Sequence record: PQ416618.1
Source: Escherichia phage vB_VIPECOMC06
Length of the DNA stretch: 64,000 nucleotides
Direction: 5' to 3' (one strand)
Position numbers and translations under genes: made by a program. Below, in pieces: positions 14,101 through 21,257 of this stretch (its first letter is position 1; the number at the start of each line of letters is the position of its first letter). The notes beneath the pieces were generated by a model. That model worked only from the letters and a program-made list of their open reading frames with translations. It was not told where the DNA came from and made no database searches.

Positions 14101-15043
14101 TTGGACGAATATTTGAATCTGCACGGATAATACGAAGACGCGATTTCTGGTCGCCTTCCCATATACGCCATAAACTATTTGCAGCATCAAAAACAAAAAA
14201 CGCGTCAGAGTCATTTCTGCCTTCGGCAATATGAGTCCCTACTTCACCAATAGACGTTGTATCATCAAATGTTTTAACAATTGTATGATACAGTGGGTTT
14301 AATCTATCTAAATCGACTAGGCTGATTATATCACCATTGTTAGCATTACGTGGAAGTGTAATGTTGATTGGTGCTGCACTAGTAAAACGACGAACTATAA
14401 AATCATTTGCTTGTGCTTGATATGGTGTCGCAGGTGTAACAGTGATTGATTCTTTACCGTAATCAATGATATACATCTGCCACAAACGATTACTAAACAC
14501 AAACACTAGTTGTGAACGTGGTCGCGTCATTAAAACTGAACGAACTTGTTCGCCTCTAAAGTTTAAAATACTCTGCACAGACGCGTTAATCTGTACTTTA
14601 ACTGTCCCGGTTCTTCCACCAATATCAGCCAAAACAACAGTATCACCATCAACCGGCGCATTTGGCAATGTGAAAACCATATCATTGCCGGCACCGGTGT
14701 TAACCGAAATCGAATCACCTGAAGAAAGTTGATAAGTCCCAGAAGCGACAGTTATCCATTGTGCATCTGTACGAACTGCACGCCATTGTAAAAGGTTAAA
14801 TGTCCCGGAAGGAGACACGATATCATTTATTGCTTGATATAAACGGTTGTCATAAAGAACAACAAATCCTTTGTTATATCCACGCGTAGAATCATATACT
14901 TGAACGGTGTTTTCTTGTACCAGGAAGTCAACGTTTACGCCATCAGTACCTACTGTACGGTCGGCTAATGCTACGTTAACAATCTTGTCGCCACCGGCGT
15001 CCAGACCGTCTTCGGCTCTGAACTTACGTTTGATGTCGGCCAT
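11168..15043 (-). CDS. 34: Long tail fibre proximal subunit gp34
   Basis: 1291 aa; MADIKRKFRAEDGLDAGGDKIVNV…; internal TPK(K/T)L…ATE…G…IAT repeats. Confidence 0.95.
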   Translation of the reverse strand: MADIKRKFRAEDGLDAGGDKIVNVALADRTVGTDGVNVDFLVQENTVQVYDSTRGYNKGFVVLYDNRLYQAINDIVSPSGTFNLLQWRAVRTDAQWITVASGTYQLSSGDSISVNTGAGNDMVFTLPNAPVDGDTVVLADIGGRTGTVKVQINASVQSILNFRGEQVRSVLMTRPRSQLVFVFSNRLWQMYIIDYGKESITVTPATPYQAQANDFIVRRFTSAAPINITLPRNANNGDIISLVDLDRLNPLYHTIVKTFDDTTSIGEVGTHIAEGRNDSDAFFVFDAANSLWRIWEGDQKSRLRIIRADSNIRPNEEVLIFGTNNATTGTINLTLPTGILSGDTVKISMNYMRKGQTVKIKAAEGDTIASSVALLQFPKRSEYPPDAQWVSVTELEFNGTTSYVPVLELAYIEDTDSDTHYWVVQQNVPTVERVDAGSDATRARLGVIALATQAQANVDLENTPAKEVAITPETLANRTATEARRGIAKIATTAQVNQNSTASFVDDTIVTPKKLNERTATETRRGLAEIATQTETDAGLDDTTIITPKKLQARQGSETLSGIVKYVSTTSATPAETRGAAGTNVYNKTVNNLTISPKALDQYKATYAQQGAVILAIDSEVIAGQSQSGYSHAVVTPETLHKKTSTDGRIGLIEIATQAETNAGTDYTRAVTPKTLNDRRATEGLSGIAEIATQVEFDTGTDDTRISTPLKIKTHFDSSDRTSVNSDSGLIEEGTLWNHYTLDISKANETQRGTLRVATQAESNAGTLDDVLITPKKLLGTKSTETSEGVIKVATQTETVTGTSANTAVSPKNLKWIVQNEPTWAATTAIRGFVKTSSGSITFVGNDTVGSTQNLELYEKNSYAVSPYELNRVLANYLPLKAKAADTNLLDGLDSSQFIRRDIAQTVNGSLTLTQQTNLSAPLVSSSTATFGGSVSANSTLTISNAGTATRLIFEKGPQTGTNPAQSMSIRVWGNQFGGGSDTTRSTVFEVGDETSNHFYSQRNKAGNITFSINGTVMPINVNASGSLNANGVATFGSSVTANGEFISKSSNAFRAISGNYGFFIRNDAVNTYFMLTASGDQTGGFNGLRPLAINNTSGQVTIGESLIIAKGATINSGGLTVNSRIRSQGTKTSDLYTRAPTSDTVGFWSIDINDSATYNQFPGYFKMVEKTNEVTGLPYLERGEEVKSPGTLTQFGNTLDSLYQDWITYPTTPEARTTRWTRTWQKTKNSWSSFVQVFDGGNPPQPSDIGALPSDNATMGNLTIRDFLRIGNVRIIPDPVNKSVKFEWVE
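12950..13750 (-). repeat. Diverged in-frame repeats in gp34 (about 28-aa units TPK(K/T)L-x-RTATE-x-(R/S)G-IA-(E/K)IAT-Q)
   Basis: At least six copies of the motif visible in the gp34 translation. Confidence 0.6.
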
Positions 15044-15073
15044 TCGTTTTTCCTTTATTGTTTCAATAATACT

Positions 15074-15081
15074 TATTTATA
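15074..15081 (-). promoter_or_regulatory. Late promoter for gene 34
   Basis: TATAAATA on minus strand about 31 nt upstream of gp34 start. Confidence 0.7.
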
Positions 15082-15084
15082 CCA

Positions 15085-15118
15085 GTTTACGCTTTCAAAT
15101 GAGTATGTTACTATAGAC
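15085..15118 (+). promoter_or_regulatory. Early promoter upstream of rnh
   Basis: GTTTAC … GTTACTATAGAC. Confidence 0.65.
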
Positions 15119-15146
15119 AAGTTGACTAACTGAACAAGAGGTTCAT

Positions 15147-16064
15147 ATGGATTTAGAAATGATGTTGGATGAAGATTACAAAGAAGGTATTGCACTTGCC
15201 GACTTTAGTAACATTGCATTGGCAGCTGCATTAAACAACTTTGAAGACGGCGATAAAATTACTGTTCCGATGGTTCGCCATGTAATCTTGAATTCAATTC
15301 GTAAAAACGTAGTGATGTTCCGTAAGCAAGGCTATACAAAATTTGTATTGTGTATGGATAATGCTACTTCAGGTTATTGGCGTCGTGACTTTGCTTACTA
15401 TTACAAGAAAAATCGTAAAACCGATCGTGAAGCTTCAAAGTGGGATTGGGAAGGATATTTTACTGCACTCCGTCAAGTTGTTGATGAGATTAAGAAATAC
15501 ATGCCATACGTTGTAATGGATATTGACAAGTATGAAGCGGATGACCATATCGGTGTATTAACTAAATATTTGTCATTAGCTGGACATAAGGTATGTATTG
15601 TTGCATCAGATGGTGACTTTACACAATTACACAAATATCCTAACGTTAAACAGTGGTCGCCACCACAGAAAAAATGGGTTAAAATTAAGAACGGTTCTGC
15701 TGAAATTGATTGCATGACTAAAATTCTTAAAGGTGACCGTAAAGACGGCGTTGCATCTGTTCGAGTTCGTGGCGACTTCTGGTTTACCAGAGTTGATGGT
15801 GAACGAACTCCGAGCATGAAAACAACGATTATTGAAGCAATTGCCAATGACCGTTCTCAAGCTGAAGTATTATTAAGTGCGGAAGAATATAAACGGTATC
15901 AAGAAAATTTGGTTCTCATTGATTTTGATTATATCCCTGATAATATTGCTTCAACCATTATAGAGTATTATAACTCATATAAACCACAACCTAAAGGCAA
16001 GATTTATTCATACTTTGTAAAATCTGGTCTTTCTAAATTAACAAGTGTAATTAATGAATTCTGA
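15147..16064 (+). CDS. rnh: RNase H (5'-3' exonuclease/flap endonuclease)
   Basis: 305 aa; MDLEMMLDEDYKEGIALADF… matches T4 Rnh. Confidence 0.95.
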   Translation: MDLEMMLDEDYKEGIALADFSNIALAAALNNFEDGDKITVPMVRHVILNSIRKNVVMFRKQGYTKFVLCMDNATSGYWRRDFAYYYKKNRKTDREASKWDWEGYFTALRQVVDEIKKYMPYVVMDIDKYEADDHIGVLTKYLSLAGHKVCIVASDGDFTQLHKYPNVKQWSPPQKKWVKIKNGSAEIDCMTKILKGDRKDGVASVRVRGDFWFTRVDGERTPSMKTTIIEAIANDRSQAEVLLSAEEYKRYQENLVLIDFDYIPDNIASTIIEYYNSYKPQPKGKIYSYFVKSGLSKLTSVINEF

Positions 16065-16071
16065 GGTAAAC

Positions 16072-16341
16072 ATGGCTAAGAAAGAAGCAGTTGAATTTAA
16101 TCAAGATGTGCATGGTGAAGAACTGGCTAAACTAGTCAAGGAAGCTTCCGATAACAAACTTAAAATTTCTGGTTATAATGAACTGATTAAAGACATTCGT
16201 ACTCGTGCTAAAGAAGAGCTTGGCGTCGATGGAAAAATGTTTAATCGTTTGTTAGCTCTTTATCATAAAGATGCTCGTGATCAATTTGAAGCTGAAAACG
16301 AAGAGGTAGTCGAGCTTTATGACACAGTTTTCACTAAGTGA
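16072..16341 (+). CDS. dsbA: dsDNA-binding protein DsbA (late transcription)
   Basis: ATG at 16072 with GAGGT RBS gives 89 aa MAKKEAVEF… matching T4 DsbA; track start 16054 is probably too far upstream. Confidence 0.9.
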   Translation: MAKKEAVEFNQDVHGEELAKLVKEASDNKLKISGYNELIKDIRTRAKEELGVDGKMFNRLLALYHKDARDQFEAENEEVVELYDTVFTK

Positions 16342-16657
16342 TATTAAACCGGTTGATGAGGCCGGTTTATCTGAACAAGAATTAGCGGTAAAACACGATA
16401 AAGATGATATCGCTAAATTGCTTGACCGACAAGAAAACGGATTCATTATCGAATCCATGGTTGAACAATTTGGTATGTCTTATTTAGAAGCAACAACTGC
16501 TTTCTTGGAAGAAAATTCTATTCCAGAAACACAATTTGCTAAATTTATTCCTACAGGAATTGTTGAAAAAATTACAAGCGAAGCAATTGATGAAAACATG
16601 CTTCGCCCATCAGTTGCTCGTGGTGAAAAAACTAATACGTTAGATTTCTTATTATGA
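16319..16657 (+). CDS. 33: Late transcription co-activator gp33
   Basis: 112 aa; MTQFSL…ENSIPETQFAKFIP…KTNTLDFLL matches T4 gp33. Confidence 0.9.
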   Translation: MTQFSLSDIKPVDEAGLSEQELAVKHDKDDIAKLLDRQENGFIIESMVEQFGMSYLEATTAFLEENSIPETQFAKFIPTGIVEKITSEAIDENMLRPSVARGEKTNTLDFLL

Positions 16658-17337
16658 AATACGTTGTGTATAAAACTACCAATAAAATAAATGGTAAAAT
16701 TTATATAGGCGTACACAAAAAACATAAAGAGAAAGATTGGTATATTGGGTCTGGCCGCGCTATATTAGCGGCCAAAGCTAAATACGGACTAAAAAATTTT
16801 TATACTGAAGTTCTTTATGAATATGATAATGACAAGGACGCCTATAAAAAAGAAGCAGAATTGGTTAATGAAGATTTTGTTTTGCGAACTGATACTTATA
16901 ACCTGGTTCCAGGTGGTAAAGGTGGCCCTGGTAAAAAACAAAGTGATGAAGCTAAAAGGGCTATTTCACTTTCTAAAATAGGGAAACCTAGATCTGAAGA
17001 GACTAAGGCTAAAGTATCTAAAACCAGATTAGAAAGAAAAATACCATCACCTAATAAGGGTAAGAAACTATCTGAAGCTCATAAATTAGCTTTGAGTAAA
17101 GTCCGAAAAGGGCGAAAAACGAATAAGCCGATGCCTGATTCAACCAAAGAAGCTCTTAGAATAGCAAATTCAAAGCCGCATTCTAAAGAAAGAACTATTA
17201 AAAAACAAAAACCTATAATTATTGATGGTATAAAATACTCATCATGTACAGAAGTTTCGGATGTTTTTAATATTTCTGCATCTCTAGTTACGTATAGACT
17301 TAAATCTTCAAAATGGCCTGGATGGAACTATGATTAA
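16654..17337 (+). CDS. Free-standing GIY-YIG homing endonuclease (Seg-like)
   Basis: 227 aa; N-terminal GIY-YIG motifs (GKIYIG … WYIGSG), central basic repeats (NUMOD-like), C-terminal HTH-like region; inserted between 33 and 59 with overlapping stop/start at both ends. Confidence 0.85.
   Translation: MKYVVYKTTNKINGKIYIGVHKKHKEKDWYIGSGRAILAAKAKYGLKNFYTEVLYEYDNDKDAYKKEAELVNEDFVLRTDTYNLVPGGKGGPGKKQSDEAKRAISLSKIGKPRSEETKAKVSKTRLERKIPSPNKGKKLSEAHKLALSKVRKGRKTNKPMPDSTKEALRIANSKPHSKERTIKKQKPIIIDGIKYSSCTEVSDVFNISASLVTYRLKSSKWPGWNYD
16654..17337 (+). mobile_element. Putative homing endonuclease gene insertion between genes 33 and 59
   Basis: Seg-type GIY-YIG ORF at a junction that I recall as directly adjacent in T4. 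Confidence 0.5.
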
Positions 17338-17983
17338 AATACGCATGCCTCCTGACGGAGAACGTTATATTAATGGTAAATCAGTATATAAACTATACTT
17401 GATGTGCAAAAACCACTTTGGTGGTCGGTATGACGTAATCAAATATAACTGGTGCATGCGTGTTTCGGATAATGCGTATCAAAAACGCCGAGATAAATAT
17501 TTCTTTGAAAAACTAGCAGAGAAATATAAATTGAAGGAACTCACCTTGATATTTATAAGCAACTTAGTTGCTAACCAAGACGCATGGATTGGTGAGATAT
17601 CAGACGCTGATGCATTAGTTTTCTATAGGGAATATATTGGACGTCTCAAACAAGCCAAGGAGACGTTTGCTGAAGATGTACGTAACATCTACTATTTCAG
17701 TAAGAAAGTGGAAGTTAGTGCGCTTCAAGAGATATTTGATTATAATAACAACGTTCAGTCGAGCTACATATTCAAATTGCTACAAAGCAATATAATTTCA
17801 TTTGAGACTTTCTTATTGTTGGACTCATTTTTGAATATTATAGATAAGCACGACGAACTTACTGACAATTTGGTCTGGCAAAATTATTCTACCAAATTAA
17901 AGGCATATCGAAAAATACTTCAAATCGATGGAAATGCTGCTAAGAAATTGTTCATAGAAACAATCAAATCATGTAGGTATTAA
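17330..17983 (+). CDS. 59: Helicase loader gp59
   Basis: 217 aa; MIKIRMPPDGERYINGKSVYKLYLM… matches T4 gp59. Confidence 0.95.
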   Translation: MIKIRMPPDGERYINGKSVYKLYLMCKNHFGGRYDVIKYNWCMRVSDNAYQKRRDKYFFEKLAEKYKLKELTLIFISNLVANQDAWIGEISDADALVFYREYIGRLKQAKETFAEDVRNIYYFSKKVEVSALQEIFDYNNNVQSSYIFKLLQSNIISFETFLLLDSFLNIIDKHDELTDNLVWQNYSTKLKAYRKILQIDGNAAKKLFIETIKSCRY

Positions 17984-18012
17984 GCTTTATTTCTTGTGTG
18001 TTAAAATTACTT

Positions 18013-18020
18013 TATAAATA
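18013..18020 (+). promoter_or_regulatory. Late promoter upstream of gene 32
   Basis: TATAAATA on plus strand in the gene 32 leader. Confidence 0.55.
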
Positions 18021-18030
18021 AATCATACCA

Positions 18031-18100
18031 GCTACGAGGTATAAGTGTCGTAGCAACCAACTGTAAATAAATTAAATAATCTAAATAAAGGTAATAATCC
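18031..18100 (+). promoter_or_regulatory. Gene 32 mRNA leader: hairpin/pseudoknot-like element plus AU-rich unstructured tract (candidate translational operator)
   Basis: Inverted repeat GCTACGA…TCGTAGC followed by an A/U-rich run (AAATAAATTAAATAATCTAAATAAAGG) reaching the RBS. Confidence 0.5.
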
Positions 18101-19000
18101 ATGTTTAAACGTAAATCTACTGCTGACCTCGCTGCTCAAATGGCTAAACTGAATGGTAACAAAGGTTTCTCTTCAGAAGATAAAGGCGAATGGAAGCTGA
18201 AACTCGATGCATCTGGTAATGGTCAAGCGGTAATTCGTTTCTTGCCAGCAAAAACTGATGATGCACTACCATTTGCAATTCTTGTTAACCACGGTTTCAA
18301 GAAAAACGGTAAATGGTATATTGAAAATTGCTCTTCTACACATGGTGATTATGACTCTTGTCCTGTATGTCAGTACATTAGTAAAAATGACCTGTACAAT
18401 ACTAACAAAACTGAATATTCTCAACTGAAACGTAAAACTTCTTATTGGGCTAATATTCTGGTTGTTAAAGACCCTCAAGCTCCAGATAACGAAGGTAAAG
18501 TATTTAAATATCGTTTCGGTAAAAAGATTTGGGACAAAATTAATGCAATGATTGCAGTTGATACTGAAATGGGTGAAACTCCAGTTGATGTTACTTGCCC
18601 GTTTGAAGGTGCTAACTTCGTTCTTAAAGCTAAGCAGGTTTCTGGTTTTAGCAACTATGACGAATCTAAATTCTTGGGTCAATCTGAAATTCCTCGTATT
18701 AATGACGAAGCATTCCAGAAAGAACTATATGACCAGATGGTAGACCTTACTACTTTGACGGCTAAAGACCAGTTCAAATCCTTTGAAAAATTAAATGAAT
18801 CTTTCGCTAAGGTTCTTGGTACTGCCGCTCTTGGTGGTGCAGCAGCCGCAGCAGCTTCTGTTGCTGATAAAGTTGCTTCTGACCTTGACGATTTTGATAA
18901 AGACATGGAAGCCTTTAGTTCTGCAAAAACTGAAGATGACTTCATGAGTTCCTCGTCTTCTGACGATGGCGACCTCGATGACCTGTTAGCTGGTCTATAA
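18101..19000 (+). CDS. 32: ssDNA-binding protein gp32
   Basis: 299 aa; [23 protein letters not shown]… with acidic C-terminus; matches T4 gp32. Confidence 0.95.
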
Positions 19001-19007
19001 TAAATTG

Positions 19008-19029
19008 GGAGACTTCGGTCTCCCTTTTG
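19008..19029 (+). terminator. Intrinsic terminator after gene 32
   Basis: GGGAGACTTCGGTCTCCC + TTTT. Confidence 0.7.
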
Positions 19030-19055
19030 AGTATCTGTAAATTGCCGAAAAAGTT

Positions 19056-19088
19056 GTTTACTTTTCCTTTAAACATGATACTATAGAC
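19056..19088 (+). promoter_or_regulatory. Early promoter upstream of ORF 19114
   Basis: GTTTAC … GATACTATAGAC. Confidence 0.65.
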
Positions 19089-19113
19089 TTATCAACAACA
19101 TGAGGAAATCAAA

Positions 19114-19500
19114 ATGGAAATCGGAAAATCTTATATCATTAACCCTTTATTTAAAGACGACTTTGCTAACGAGTGCCGTTGCAATGCAATGATGCTAAAT
19201 TTAATAGAGAAGCACGGACCTAGTTTTGTTGTAGATGAAATGGAAAGTGATGATTGTGCTGGTGACTGTGTGGTACGTGTAACTATGGAAGACGGCACTG
19301 AATACATGGCCGGTGGCCCACTTGAGACGTATTTTGAGATTTACTCTGAAGAATTCAAATACTTTACTGAGGTAACTTTAGAAAAGCCTCAACCTACTAA
19401 CGAAGGTATAACTTTAGGTGTAACAAAAATCCATTGTATCGTAGATGAAACCAACGTCGACGAAATCATCAAACTTTTGCAAAAAACTTTTAAAAAGTAG
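19114..19500 (+). CDS. Hypothetical early protein (frd.x position)
   Basis: 128-aa ORF with GAGGAAA RBS and early promoter upstream. Confidence 0.6.
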   Translation: MEIGKSYIINPLFKDDFANECRCNAMMLNLIEKHGPSFVVDEMESDDCAGDCVVRVTMEDGTEYMAGGPLETYFEIYSEEFKYFTEVTLEKPQPTNEGITLGVTKIHCIVDETNVDEIIKLLQKTFKK

Positions 19501-19538
19501 TTTACAACAAGATAGGGCTATGTTATAGTAGCCCTATC
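19500..19538 (+). promoter_or_regulatory. Early promoter with stem-loop (PeSL-like) upstream of ORF 19562
   Basis: GTTTAC -35; -10 TGTTATAGTA flanked by perfect 10-bp inverted repeat GATAGGGCTA / TAGCCCTATC. Confidence 0.65.
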
Positions 19539-19561
19539 AAATAAAAGTGAAGGAGAATAAA

Positions 19562-21257
<1,696 letters not shown>

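Follow-up and report, generated by a model that had tools for sequence, protein, structure and literature searches.

In bacteriophage T4, SegF, SegG, SegB and SegE represent the known paradigm of homing by free-standing endonucleases (PMC2988022). In the process described for SegF as intronless homing, the endonuclease-free allele is cut in the adjacent gene and repair replaces the cut segment along with the gene (Belle et al. 2002, summarised in PMC2988022). SegG, which is encoded between genes 59 and 32 (PMC535899), has its cleavage site within gene 32, an essential neighbour, and causes flanking markers to be co-converted (PMC2988022, PMC535899). The seg genes of T4 are found at uvsX/beta-gt, in the tRNA cluster, and at 5.1/5.3, 23/24, inh/uvsW, soc/56 and 32/59, with none at 33/59, and the characterised enzymes cut hundreds to thousands of bp away from their own genes (PMC2988022). 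Here we describe an open reading frame (ORF) located at the 33/59 junction in a 64,000-nt stretch of DNA from Escherichia phage vB_VIPECOMC06 (PQ416618.1), the whole of which is referred to below as the window. Comparison of phages with and without this ORF revealed a precise presence/absence polymorphism and, in four genera, a sharp tract of variant sequence linked to the ORF at the beginning of gene 59. We consider it probable that the ORF is an active, promoterless and translationally coupled 'intronless homing' cassette, the target of which resides in the 5' end of gene 59.

The features on which the comparison is based are the following (all on the + strand).

16319..16657, + strand: gene 33 (late-transcription co-activator), left flank; Pfam Trans_coact, E=3.5e-26
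16654..17337, + strand: predicted homing endonuclease ORF with an ATG start, 227 aa; ORF list, TIGR01453, PHROG 314, I-TevI alignment and AlphaFold (AF2) model
16658..17333, + strand: 676-bp insert without counterpart in endonuclease-free Mosigviruses; junction alignment with NRG-P0074 and 10 loci lacking the endonuclease
17330..17983, + strand: gene 59 (helicase loader), right flank; Pfam T4_Gp59_N, E=1.9e-49, and T4_Gp59_C, E=1e-43
17353..17421, + strand: 5'-proximal tract of variant sequence in gene 59 that is linked to the endonuclease, a candidate recognition/cleavage (immunity) region; comparison of loci with and without the endonuclease

The gene order, as determined with Pfam, is RNase H, DsbA, gp33, endonuclease ORF, gp59 and gp32. 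The TGA stop codon of gene 33 and the ATG start codon of the endonuclease overlap as ATGA (16654–16657), and ATGATTAA (17330–17337) constitutes both the first 8 nt of gene 59 and the last codons and stop of the endonuclease ORF. The ORF and both of its overlaps are thus positioned exactly as in the initial annotation of this stretch. The spacer between genes 59 and 32 is 117 nt long in the window and does not contain segG; no second copy or paralogue of the endonuclease was found in the window at E<0.01.

Occupied and empty 33/59 junctions

The window belongs to a Mosigvirus (RB69 group). Only one close Mosigvirus locus was retrieved from IMG/VR, and the within-genus comparison was therefore based on phage records in GenBank. 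Megablast searches seeded with the 33-ORF-59 region showed that 28 phage records carry the whole arrangement (96–99% identity), whereas ∼126 equally close records match it in two pieces, skipping the ORF (∼154 close records in all). In the empty genomes, as exemplified by NRG-P0074 and apparent from the alignment, genes 33 and 59 overlap by ATGA. The insert measures 676 bp in each endonuclease-containing Mosigvirus locus and a copy of the 5-nt repeat TATGA is found at either end of it (16653–16657 and 17329–17333), so that the insert boundaries are ambiguous by the length of that repeat. These clean empty sites bear out the precise insertion into an otherwise contiguous 33-59 junction that the initial annotation had postulated from the overlaps, and the ORF, present in 28 of the ∼154 close records, is sporadic and not universal at the junction. 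Occupied and empty sites coexist even within ICTV species: in the JS09 species SSE1 contains the endonuclease and TU01 does not, while in the mar005p1 species WFbE185 and JK42 contain it and mar005P1 does not. RB69 itself, the model Mosigvirus, has no endonuclease gene at this place and was listed without homing endonuclease genes in a 2010 survey (PMC2993671).

Two further observations concern the variability of Mosigvirus genomes. Escherichia phage HX01 (JX536493; locus L004, 2501–3025) contains, elsewhere in its genome and in a segment lacking annotation, a relative of the endonuclease with 45% identity (residues 3–179). In addition, Mosigviruses that are otherwise near-identical differ in the set of small ORFs that separates gene 32 from frd (frd.1, frd.2 and frd.3-like; 19114–19810 in the window and the equivalent regions of loci L001 and L027–L042), in both number and content; this is a second variable patch near the endonuclease.

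Outside Mosigvirus, the closest relatives of the protein are ∼50–60% identical over the aligned residues (46–56% by tblastn), and all those examined are encoded at the 33/59 junction. The carriers are Winklervirus (Serratia phages CBH8, CHI14 and LC53, and Kosakonia phage Kc304; five records with the endonuclease and five without), Dhakavirus (Escherichia phages LQ5, AnYang and IME540; four records with the endonuclease, the rest without) and Karamvirus or similar phages (Enterobacter phage KMB20 and metagenome contigs). In each of these three genera the site is empty in most relatives. All copies begin at the ATGA of gene 33 and run into gene 59 until their stop codon; the overlap with gene 59 is 8 nt long where that gene begins with ATGATTAA, Dhakavirus and Karamvirus included, and 26 nt long in Winklervirus, where it begins with ATGATAAC. 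The 22 loci from IMG/VR that were compared span T4-like diversity. Leaving aside a distant one in which gp33 was not detected, 20 of them have genes 33 and 59 contiguous, and the single exception is identical to the locus of Serratia phage CBH8.

Genes 33 and 59 of T4 likewise overlap by ATGA, and segG lies between genes 59 and 32. The statement in the initial annotation that T4 has no endonuclease at exactly this junction was therefore correct. At the position equivalent to that of T4 segG, Dhakavirus LQ5 (locus L047, 3830–4450) and two other loci (L048 and L049) contain an ORF of 205–206 aa without a Pfam match, which in L047 and L048 overlaps the end of gene 59.

Certain copies differ in their 3' parts or in their annotation. 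The endonucleases of loci L050 (2501–3196) and L053 (2501–3100; also L056, 1797–2396) are identical over the first ∼155 aa, which comprise the nuclease domain and the linker, but their C-terminal DNA-binding modules differ: L050 has a long form of 231 aa, and L053 a short one of 199 aa with a Winklervirus-like C-terminus. The difference would fit a swap of domains between endonucleases that occupy one and the same junction. In KMB20 (L056, 1797–2396) GenBank annotates a 132-aa 'hypothetical protein', which was considered as a truncated copy. Translation of the interval gives a full-length endonuclease of 199 aa that starts from the gene 33 ATGA, and the truncation was accordingly rejected as a mis-annotation and not a case of decay.

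The endonuclease-linked tract in gene 59

Each carrier was compared with its nearest empty relative, and the substitutions in nt 1–100 of gene 59 were counted against those in nt 101–650. The results for one pair from each genus are given below.

Winklervirus, CBH8 / Gravdalen: 22 substitutions in nt 1–100 and 0 in nt 101–650
Karamvirus-like, L053 / L009: 20 substitutions in nt 1–100 and 10 in nt 101–650
Mosigvirus, window / TU01: 11 substitutions in nt 1–100 and 9 in nt 101–650
Dhakavirus, LQ5 / 04086: 16 substitutions in nt 1–100 and 10 in nt 101–650

The clustering at the 5' end of gene 59 is significant in all four pairs (binomial p from 1e-18 to 5e-5), and in the four genera the divergent tract is sharp, corresponding to nt ∼15–95 of gene 59. 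On the other side of the insert, the last 100–150 nt of gene 33 display 0–2 differences in each of the four pairs. Within-genus controls, in which two empty or two occupied loci were compared, revealed no excess of differences over nt 1–100 of gene 59, with one exception. The latter, a pair of endonuclease-containing Karamviruses whose tracts differ from each other, suggests that exchange took place more than once. A footprint of the kind expected from co-conversion of flanking markers is thus present in four genera, with negative controls. The initial annotation had placed the likely target in or near gene 59 or gene 33; the signal lies entirely within the first ∼100 nt of gene 59, which points to the first of these genes as the probable location, and none of it lies in gene 33.

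The changes in the tract occur mainly at third codon positions and therefore look as if they had been imported from a diverged gene 59 rather than produced by random damage. The Karamvirus tract is 83% identical to that of another endonuclease-containing lineage compared to 73% to the empty allele of its own genus, while outside the tract gene 59 is 97% identical to that of its own genus.

In Mosigvirus, the bases invariably linked to the endonuclease are 17389T, 17411A, 17413C and 17420–17421GG, as a result of which Q28 and N31 of gp59, the state shared by T4 and the majority of empty alleles, are replaced by N28 and G31. These bases are present in 10/10 occupied loci; among ten empty loci those at 17411–17421 are found in two and all five in one (NRG-P0074). 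On a broader scale, a 61-nt haplotype is shared by all 28 carrier records and by ∼30 of 128 empty ones (Fisher p=5e-15, a value that ignores the relatedness of the genomes). The empty records with the linked haplotype are those of NRG-P0074 (locus L002, 2836–2930), KAW3E185, JM10, G53, G2285, F2, mobillu and 13 LF82 isolates, among others. Since ∼30 empty records share it, the haplotype appears to be necessary but not sufficient for carriage of the endonuclease; such alleles may be either precise losses or pre-existing resistant alleles. In the comparison of ten occupied and ten empty Mosigvirus loci no fixed flank differences were found outside the insert. A simple diagnostic 'immunity' single-nucleotide polymorphism (SNP) was rejected because the linked gene 59 bases occur also in some empty alleles. 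An I-TevI-like CNNNG cut motif was sought in the tract by eye and was dropped, as no consistent pattern distinguished occupied from empty loci.

The endonuclease and its expression

The enzyme I-TevI, encoded in the td intron of T4, has a three-part layout, in which an N-terminal GIY-YIG nuclease is connected by an extended linker to a C-terminal helix-turn-helix DNA-binding domain. The protein encoded in the window is predicted to be arranged in the same way.

16654..16926, + strand: predicted N-terminal GIY-YIG nuclease domain, aa 1–91; motif residues Y6, Y17-I-G19, R35, E67/E73 and N83, with 'VVY' replacing GIY
16930..17178, + strand: basic linker with NUMOD3-like helical repeats, aa 93–175; Pfam NUMOD3 (aa 93–122) and AF2 helices
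17200..17331, + strand: predicted C-terminal I-TevI-type helix-turn-helix DNA-binding domain, aa 183–226; matches to PF20987 and 1i3j

The protein matched the NCBIfam model TIGR01453, 'group I intron endonuclease', with 74.1 bits (cut-off 56.05), residues 4–224 being aligned to positions 3–210 of the 215 in the model. By this membership the protein is predicted to be a GIY-YIG homing endonuclease of the I-TevI/Seg type, and it also matched PHROG 314, 'homing endonuclease' (E=4e-55). The DNA-binding domain was recognized by the Pfam model I-TevI_DNA-bd (PF20987; E=5.7e-11, residues 183–226) and in a phmmer search that retrieved the structure of the corresponding domain of I-TevI (PDB 1i3j; E=5e-4), whereas NUMOD3 barely passes its cut-off (20.7 against 20.4 bits, residues 93–122). 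The labels given in GenBank to the equivalent proteins of near-identical phages are 'homing endonuclease' or 'Seg-like'.

Among 48 homologues, the residues Y6, N10, K15, Y17, G19, Y30, G32, G34, F49, E67, Y82, N83, G87 and G88 are invariant. Alignment of the profile to I-TevI with hhalign resulted in a match of 96.6% probability over 189 columns with 31% identity, pairing Y6, Y17 and G19 with the residues of the same number in I-TevI. For this alignment the canonical I-TevI sequence was used; it agrees with the translation of the T4 record MZ375356, which contains frameshifts within I-TevI, save for the frameshift junction and two missing residues. The structural model built with AF2 on the alignment had a mean predicted local distance difference test (pLDDT) score of 90.1, with linker helices at residues 98–108, 115–127, 141–151 and 162–173. 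When the model was compared to the PDB using Foldseek, the top two matches were the catalytic domain of I-TevI (1mk0; probability 1.00, template modelling (TM) score of 0.68 on the target) and its DNA-binding domain (1i3j_A; probability 1.00). The curated hidden Markov model (HMM), the I-TevI profile alignment and the predicted fold therefore agree on the Seg/I-TevI architecture, with GIY-YIG, NUMOD-like and C-terminal helix-turn-helix parts, that the initial annotation had proposed. The assignment of the catalytic residues, and with it the prediction of a nuclease, is likely.

All of the ten Mosigvirus copies that were aligned are intact. The most divergent pairs among them display a synonymous divergence (dS) of 0.18–0.25 and a ratio of non-synonymous to synonymous divergence (dN/dS) of 0.08–0.12, from which it follows that the protein is under purifying selection. 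In Serratia phage LC53 (locus L045, 1809–2402) the linker contains an in-frame deletion of 15 nt relative to CBH8 and CHI14. It could be argued that the ORF is a chance one or a mis-annotation and does not represent a functional gene, for which the sub-threshold score of the Pfam GIY-YIG models (see below), and nothing else, could be invoked. Given a curated HMM match above the cut-off, 642 homologues at E≤1e-5, a dN/dS of ∼0.1 and a confident predicted fold (pLDDT 90), we ruled this out as exceedingly improbable.

No late promoter of the TATAAATA type is present on the + strand in the endonuclease ORF or just upstream of it, the nearest one being at 18013, before gene 32, and the sigma-70-like matches near the endonuclease are at the level of shuffled sequences. 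No + strand terminator was predicted at the locus, and Rfam searches, in which group I introns were included, gave no match in 15000–19200. The sequence upstream of the endonuclease ATG is T-rich and lacks a Shine-Dalgarno motif; in empty genomes the same sequence precedes gene 59. In the carriers it is GGATGGAAC that precedes gene 59, the start of which falls within the end of the endonuclease ORF. It would be natural to infer that translation of the endonuclease is coupled to that of gene 33 via the ATGA overlap. For the window as a whole, the TATAAATA octamer occurs 19 times compared to 6.7 ± 2.4 in shuffled sequences, mostly on the − strand and in the second half, an excess that fits a late-gene region.

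Proposed intronless homing, its alternatives and the T4 precedents

If the cassette operates as proposed, its expression and spread would proceed in the following manner. Having no promoter of its own, the endonuclease would be carried on the dsbA-33-59 transcript, and the ATGATTAA overlap would allow ribosomes to continue into gene 59, keeping this essential gene expressed. During mixed infection the enzyme would cut the endonuclease-free allele, most likely in the first ∼100 bp of gene 59. Recombination would then repair the break using the endonuclease-carrying genome as the template, and the repair would copy the 676-bp gene together with the beginning of gene 59 next to it, in a variant that the enzyme would not cut.

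Several results weigh against this proposal. At the level of the protein, the Pfam GIY-YIG models remain below threshold (SegE_GIY-YIG, 19.9 against 25 bits), a phmmer search of the PDB with the N-terminal 95 aa yielded no match, the 48-sequence profile reached the I-TevI DNA-binding domain but not the catalytic domain in the PDB, and the E-values of the Foldseek matches are modest (∼4e-3). The initial annotation had allowed that catalytic residues might prove to be missing on alignment. This is not so for Y6, Y17, G19, E67 and N83, which are invariant, but Glu75 of I-TevI pairs with E73 at low column confidence, whereas the invariant glutamate is E67, and the alignment places the equivalent of Arg27 poorly: the candidate is R35, in the place of which most relatives have lysine. 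One copy, that of AV116 (locus L057, 536–1220), contains a 1-nt insertion at nt 307 (AAAAGG-GCT to AAAAGGTCCT) which shifts the frame after residue 102, and only a downstream ORF of 138 aa is annotated in this phage; the shift reflects genuine decay or else an error in sequencing. With regard to the tract, with ∼30 empty Mosigviruses in the linked-haplotype class the association of tract and endonuclease in this genus could be plain linkage to the insertion lineage, and since Mosigvirus lacks common SNPs within 200 nt upstream, the one-sidedness of the footprint leans mainly on the other three genera. Pairs of sequences cannot show the direction of exchange, nor distinguish gain from loss. Finally, none of the papers in the collection searched was found to describe or test a 33/59 endonuclease.

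A rival explanation would be an endonuclease that has been retired or domesticated, has lost its mobility and is kept for the translation of gene 59 or for another DNA-binding role. Translation of gene 59 might depend on it through the ATGATTAA overlap and a GGAUGGA-like sequence in the 3' end of the endonuclease; the gene is promoterless and wedged in overlapping reading frames, where an imprecise deletion would harm gene 59 expression; purifying selection would be expected there too; and the position equivalent to Arg27 is occupied by lysine in most relatives. However, precise empty sites are in the majority (∼126 of 154 records), so that gene 59 can do without the endonuclease, all other catalytic motif residues are invariant, and presence/absence within species, together with a distinct tract in each endonuclease-containing lineage, points to continuing exchange. 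We regard this explanation as unlikely. Slightly less credible still is an ancient insertion that predates the split of the four genera and was followed by many precise losses via TATGA/TTATGAT microhomology, the tract being a mark of removal. The identity between endonucleases of different genera (52–61%) does not make them obviously younger than gp33 (54–61%), short direct repeats do flank the insert, the ∼30 empty Mosigvirus alleles with the linked haplotype could be recent losses, and the direction of conversion is not readable from the pairs. Yet in every other T4-like lineage sampled genes 33 and 59 are contiguous, which would call for very many independent precise losses. Moreover, deletion by microhomology would leave the tract of the occupied allele behind, as in NRG-P0074, whereas most empty alleles have a different tract; the Karamvirus tract groups with another endonuclease-containing lineage and not with its own genus, and two endonuclease-containing Karamviruses carry different tracts.

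An extended form of the homing proposal is conceivable, although we hold it only tentatively and think it rather doubtful. The endonuclease and the opening ∼90 nt of gene 59 might constitute one composite mobile cassette that has crossed the boundaries between Mosigvirus, Dhakavirus, Karamvirus and Winklervirus and has repeatedly replaced the part of gene 59, an essential replication gene, that encodes the N-terminus. The enzyme would then cut unusually near to the insertion point, at less than 100 bp, and translation of gene 59 would be dependent on it, which would favour its retention.

The locus would be suited to several questions: how near to its own gene a free-standing endonuclease can cut, whether such elements move between genera, and whether the ∼30 empty alleles with the linked haplotype are immune. 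In the four genera, carrier and empty alleles that are otherwise near-identical narrow the likely target to ∼70–100 bp of gene 59. Many of these phages are candidates for therapy or biocontrol, and in mixed phage cocktails the element would be expected to bias the inheritance of gene 59 and neighbouring alleles.

Compared to I-TevI, the local identity of the window protein is ∼30% (32% by tblastn over the C-terminal 137 aa, in addition to the 31% obtained with hhalign), and Y6, N10, K15, Y17 and G19 are numbered identically in the two proteins. The I-TevI linker contains a zinc finger, whereas that of the window protein consists of NUMOD3-like repeats, and after the YIG strand the window protein has a Seg-type 'D-W-Y-I-G-S-G' segment, unlike I-TevI. 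Furthermore, while I-TevI is encoded by the td intron, the window gene is free-standing, overlaps both of its neighbours and has no Rfam intron match.

Among the T4-type Seg proteins the best match is SegD (the product of segD in phage RB55 is ∼33% identical along 98% of the length), which belongs to the same family of free-standing, sporadic GIY-YIG enzymes and the activity of which is listed as undetermined (PMC2988022). SegD is found at 23/24 (PMC2988022) and the window gene at 33/59; at 33% identity they are paralogues and different elements. SegG (T4 gene 32.1) is also a promoterless free-standing GIY-YIG cassette adjoining gene 59 in the same operon, but it sits on the other side of that gene (59/32), and a tblastn search of the T4 33-32 region with the window endonuclease did not match segG. 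Judging from site and similarity, then, the 33/59 endonuclease is not an orthologue of any of the seven T4 seg genes (segA–G), in agreement with the initial annotation, which had taken it for a probably distinct insertion event. The T4 Seg enzymes cut at distances of hundreds to thousands of bp, whereas the linked tract described here ends ∼100 bp from the insertion; such a short distance would be mildly unusual, if confirmed. The footprint seen across four genera by sequence comparison is the one that would be expected under the SegF model. The 33/59 junction may be regarded as an eighth, unnamed Seg-type insertion site in T4-like phages.

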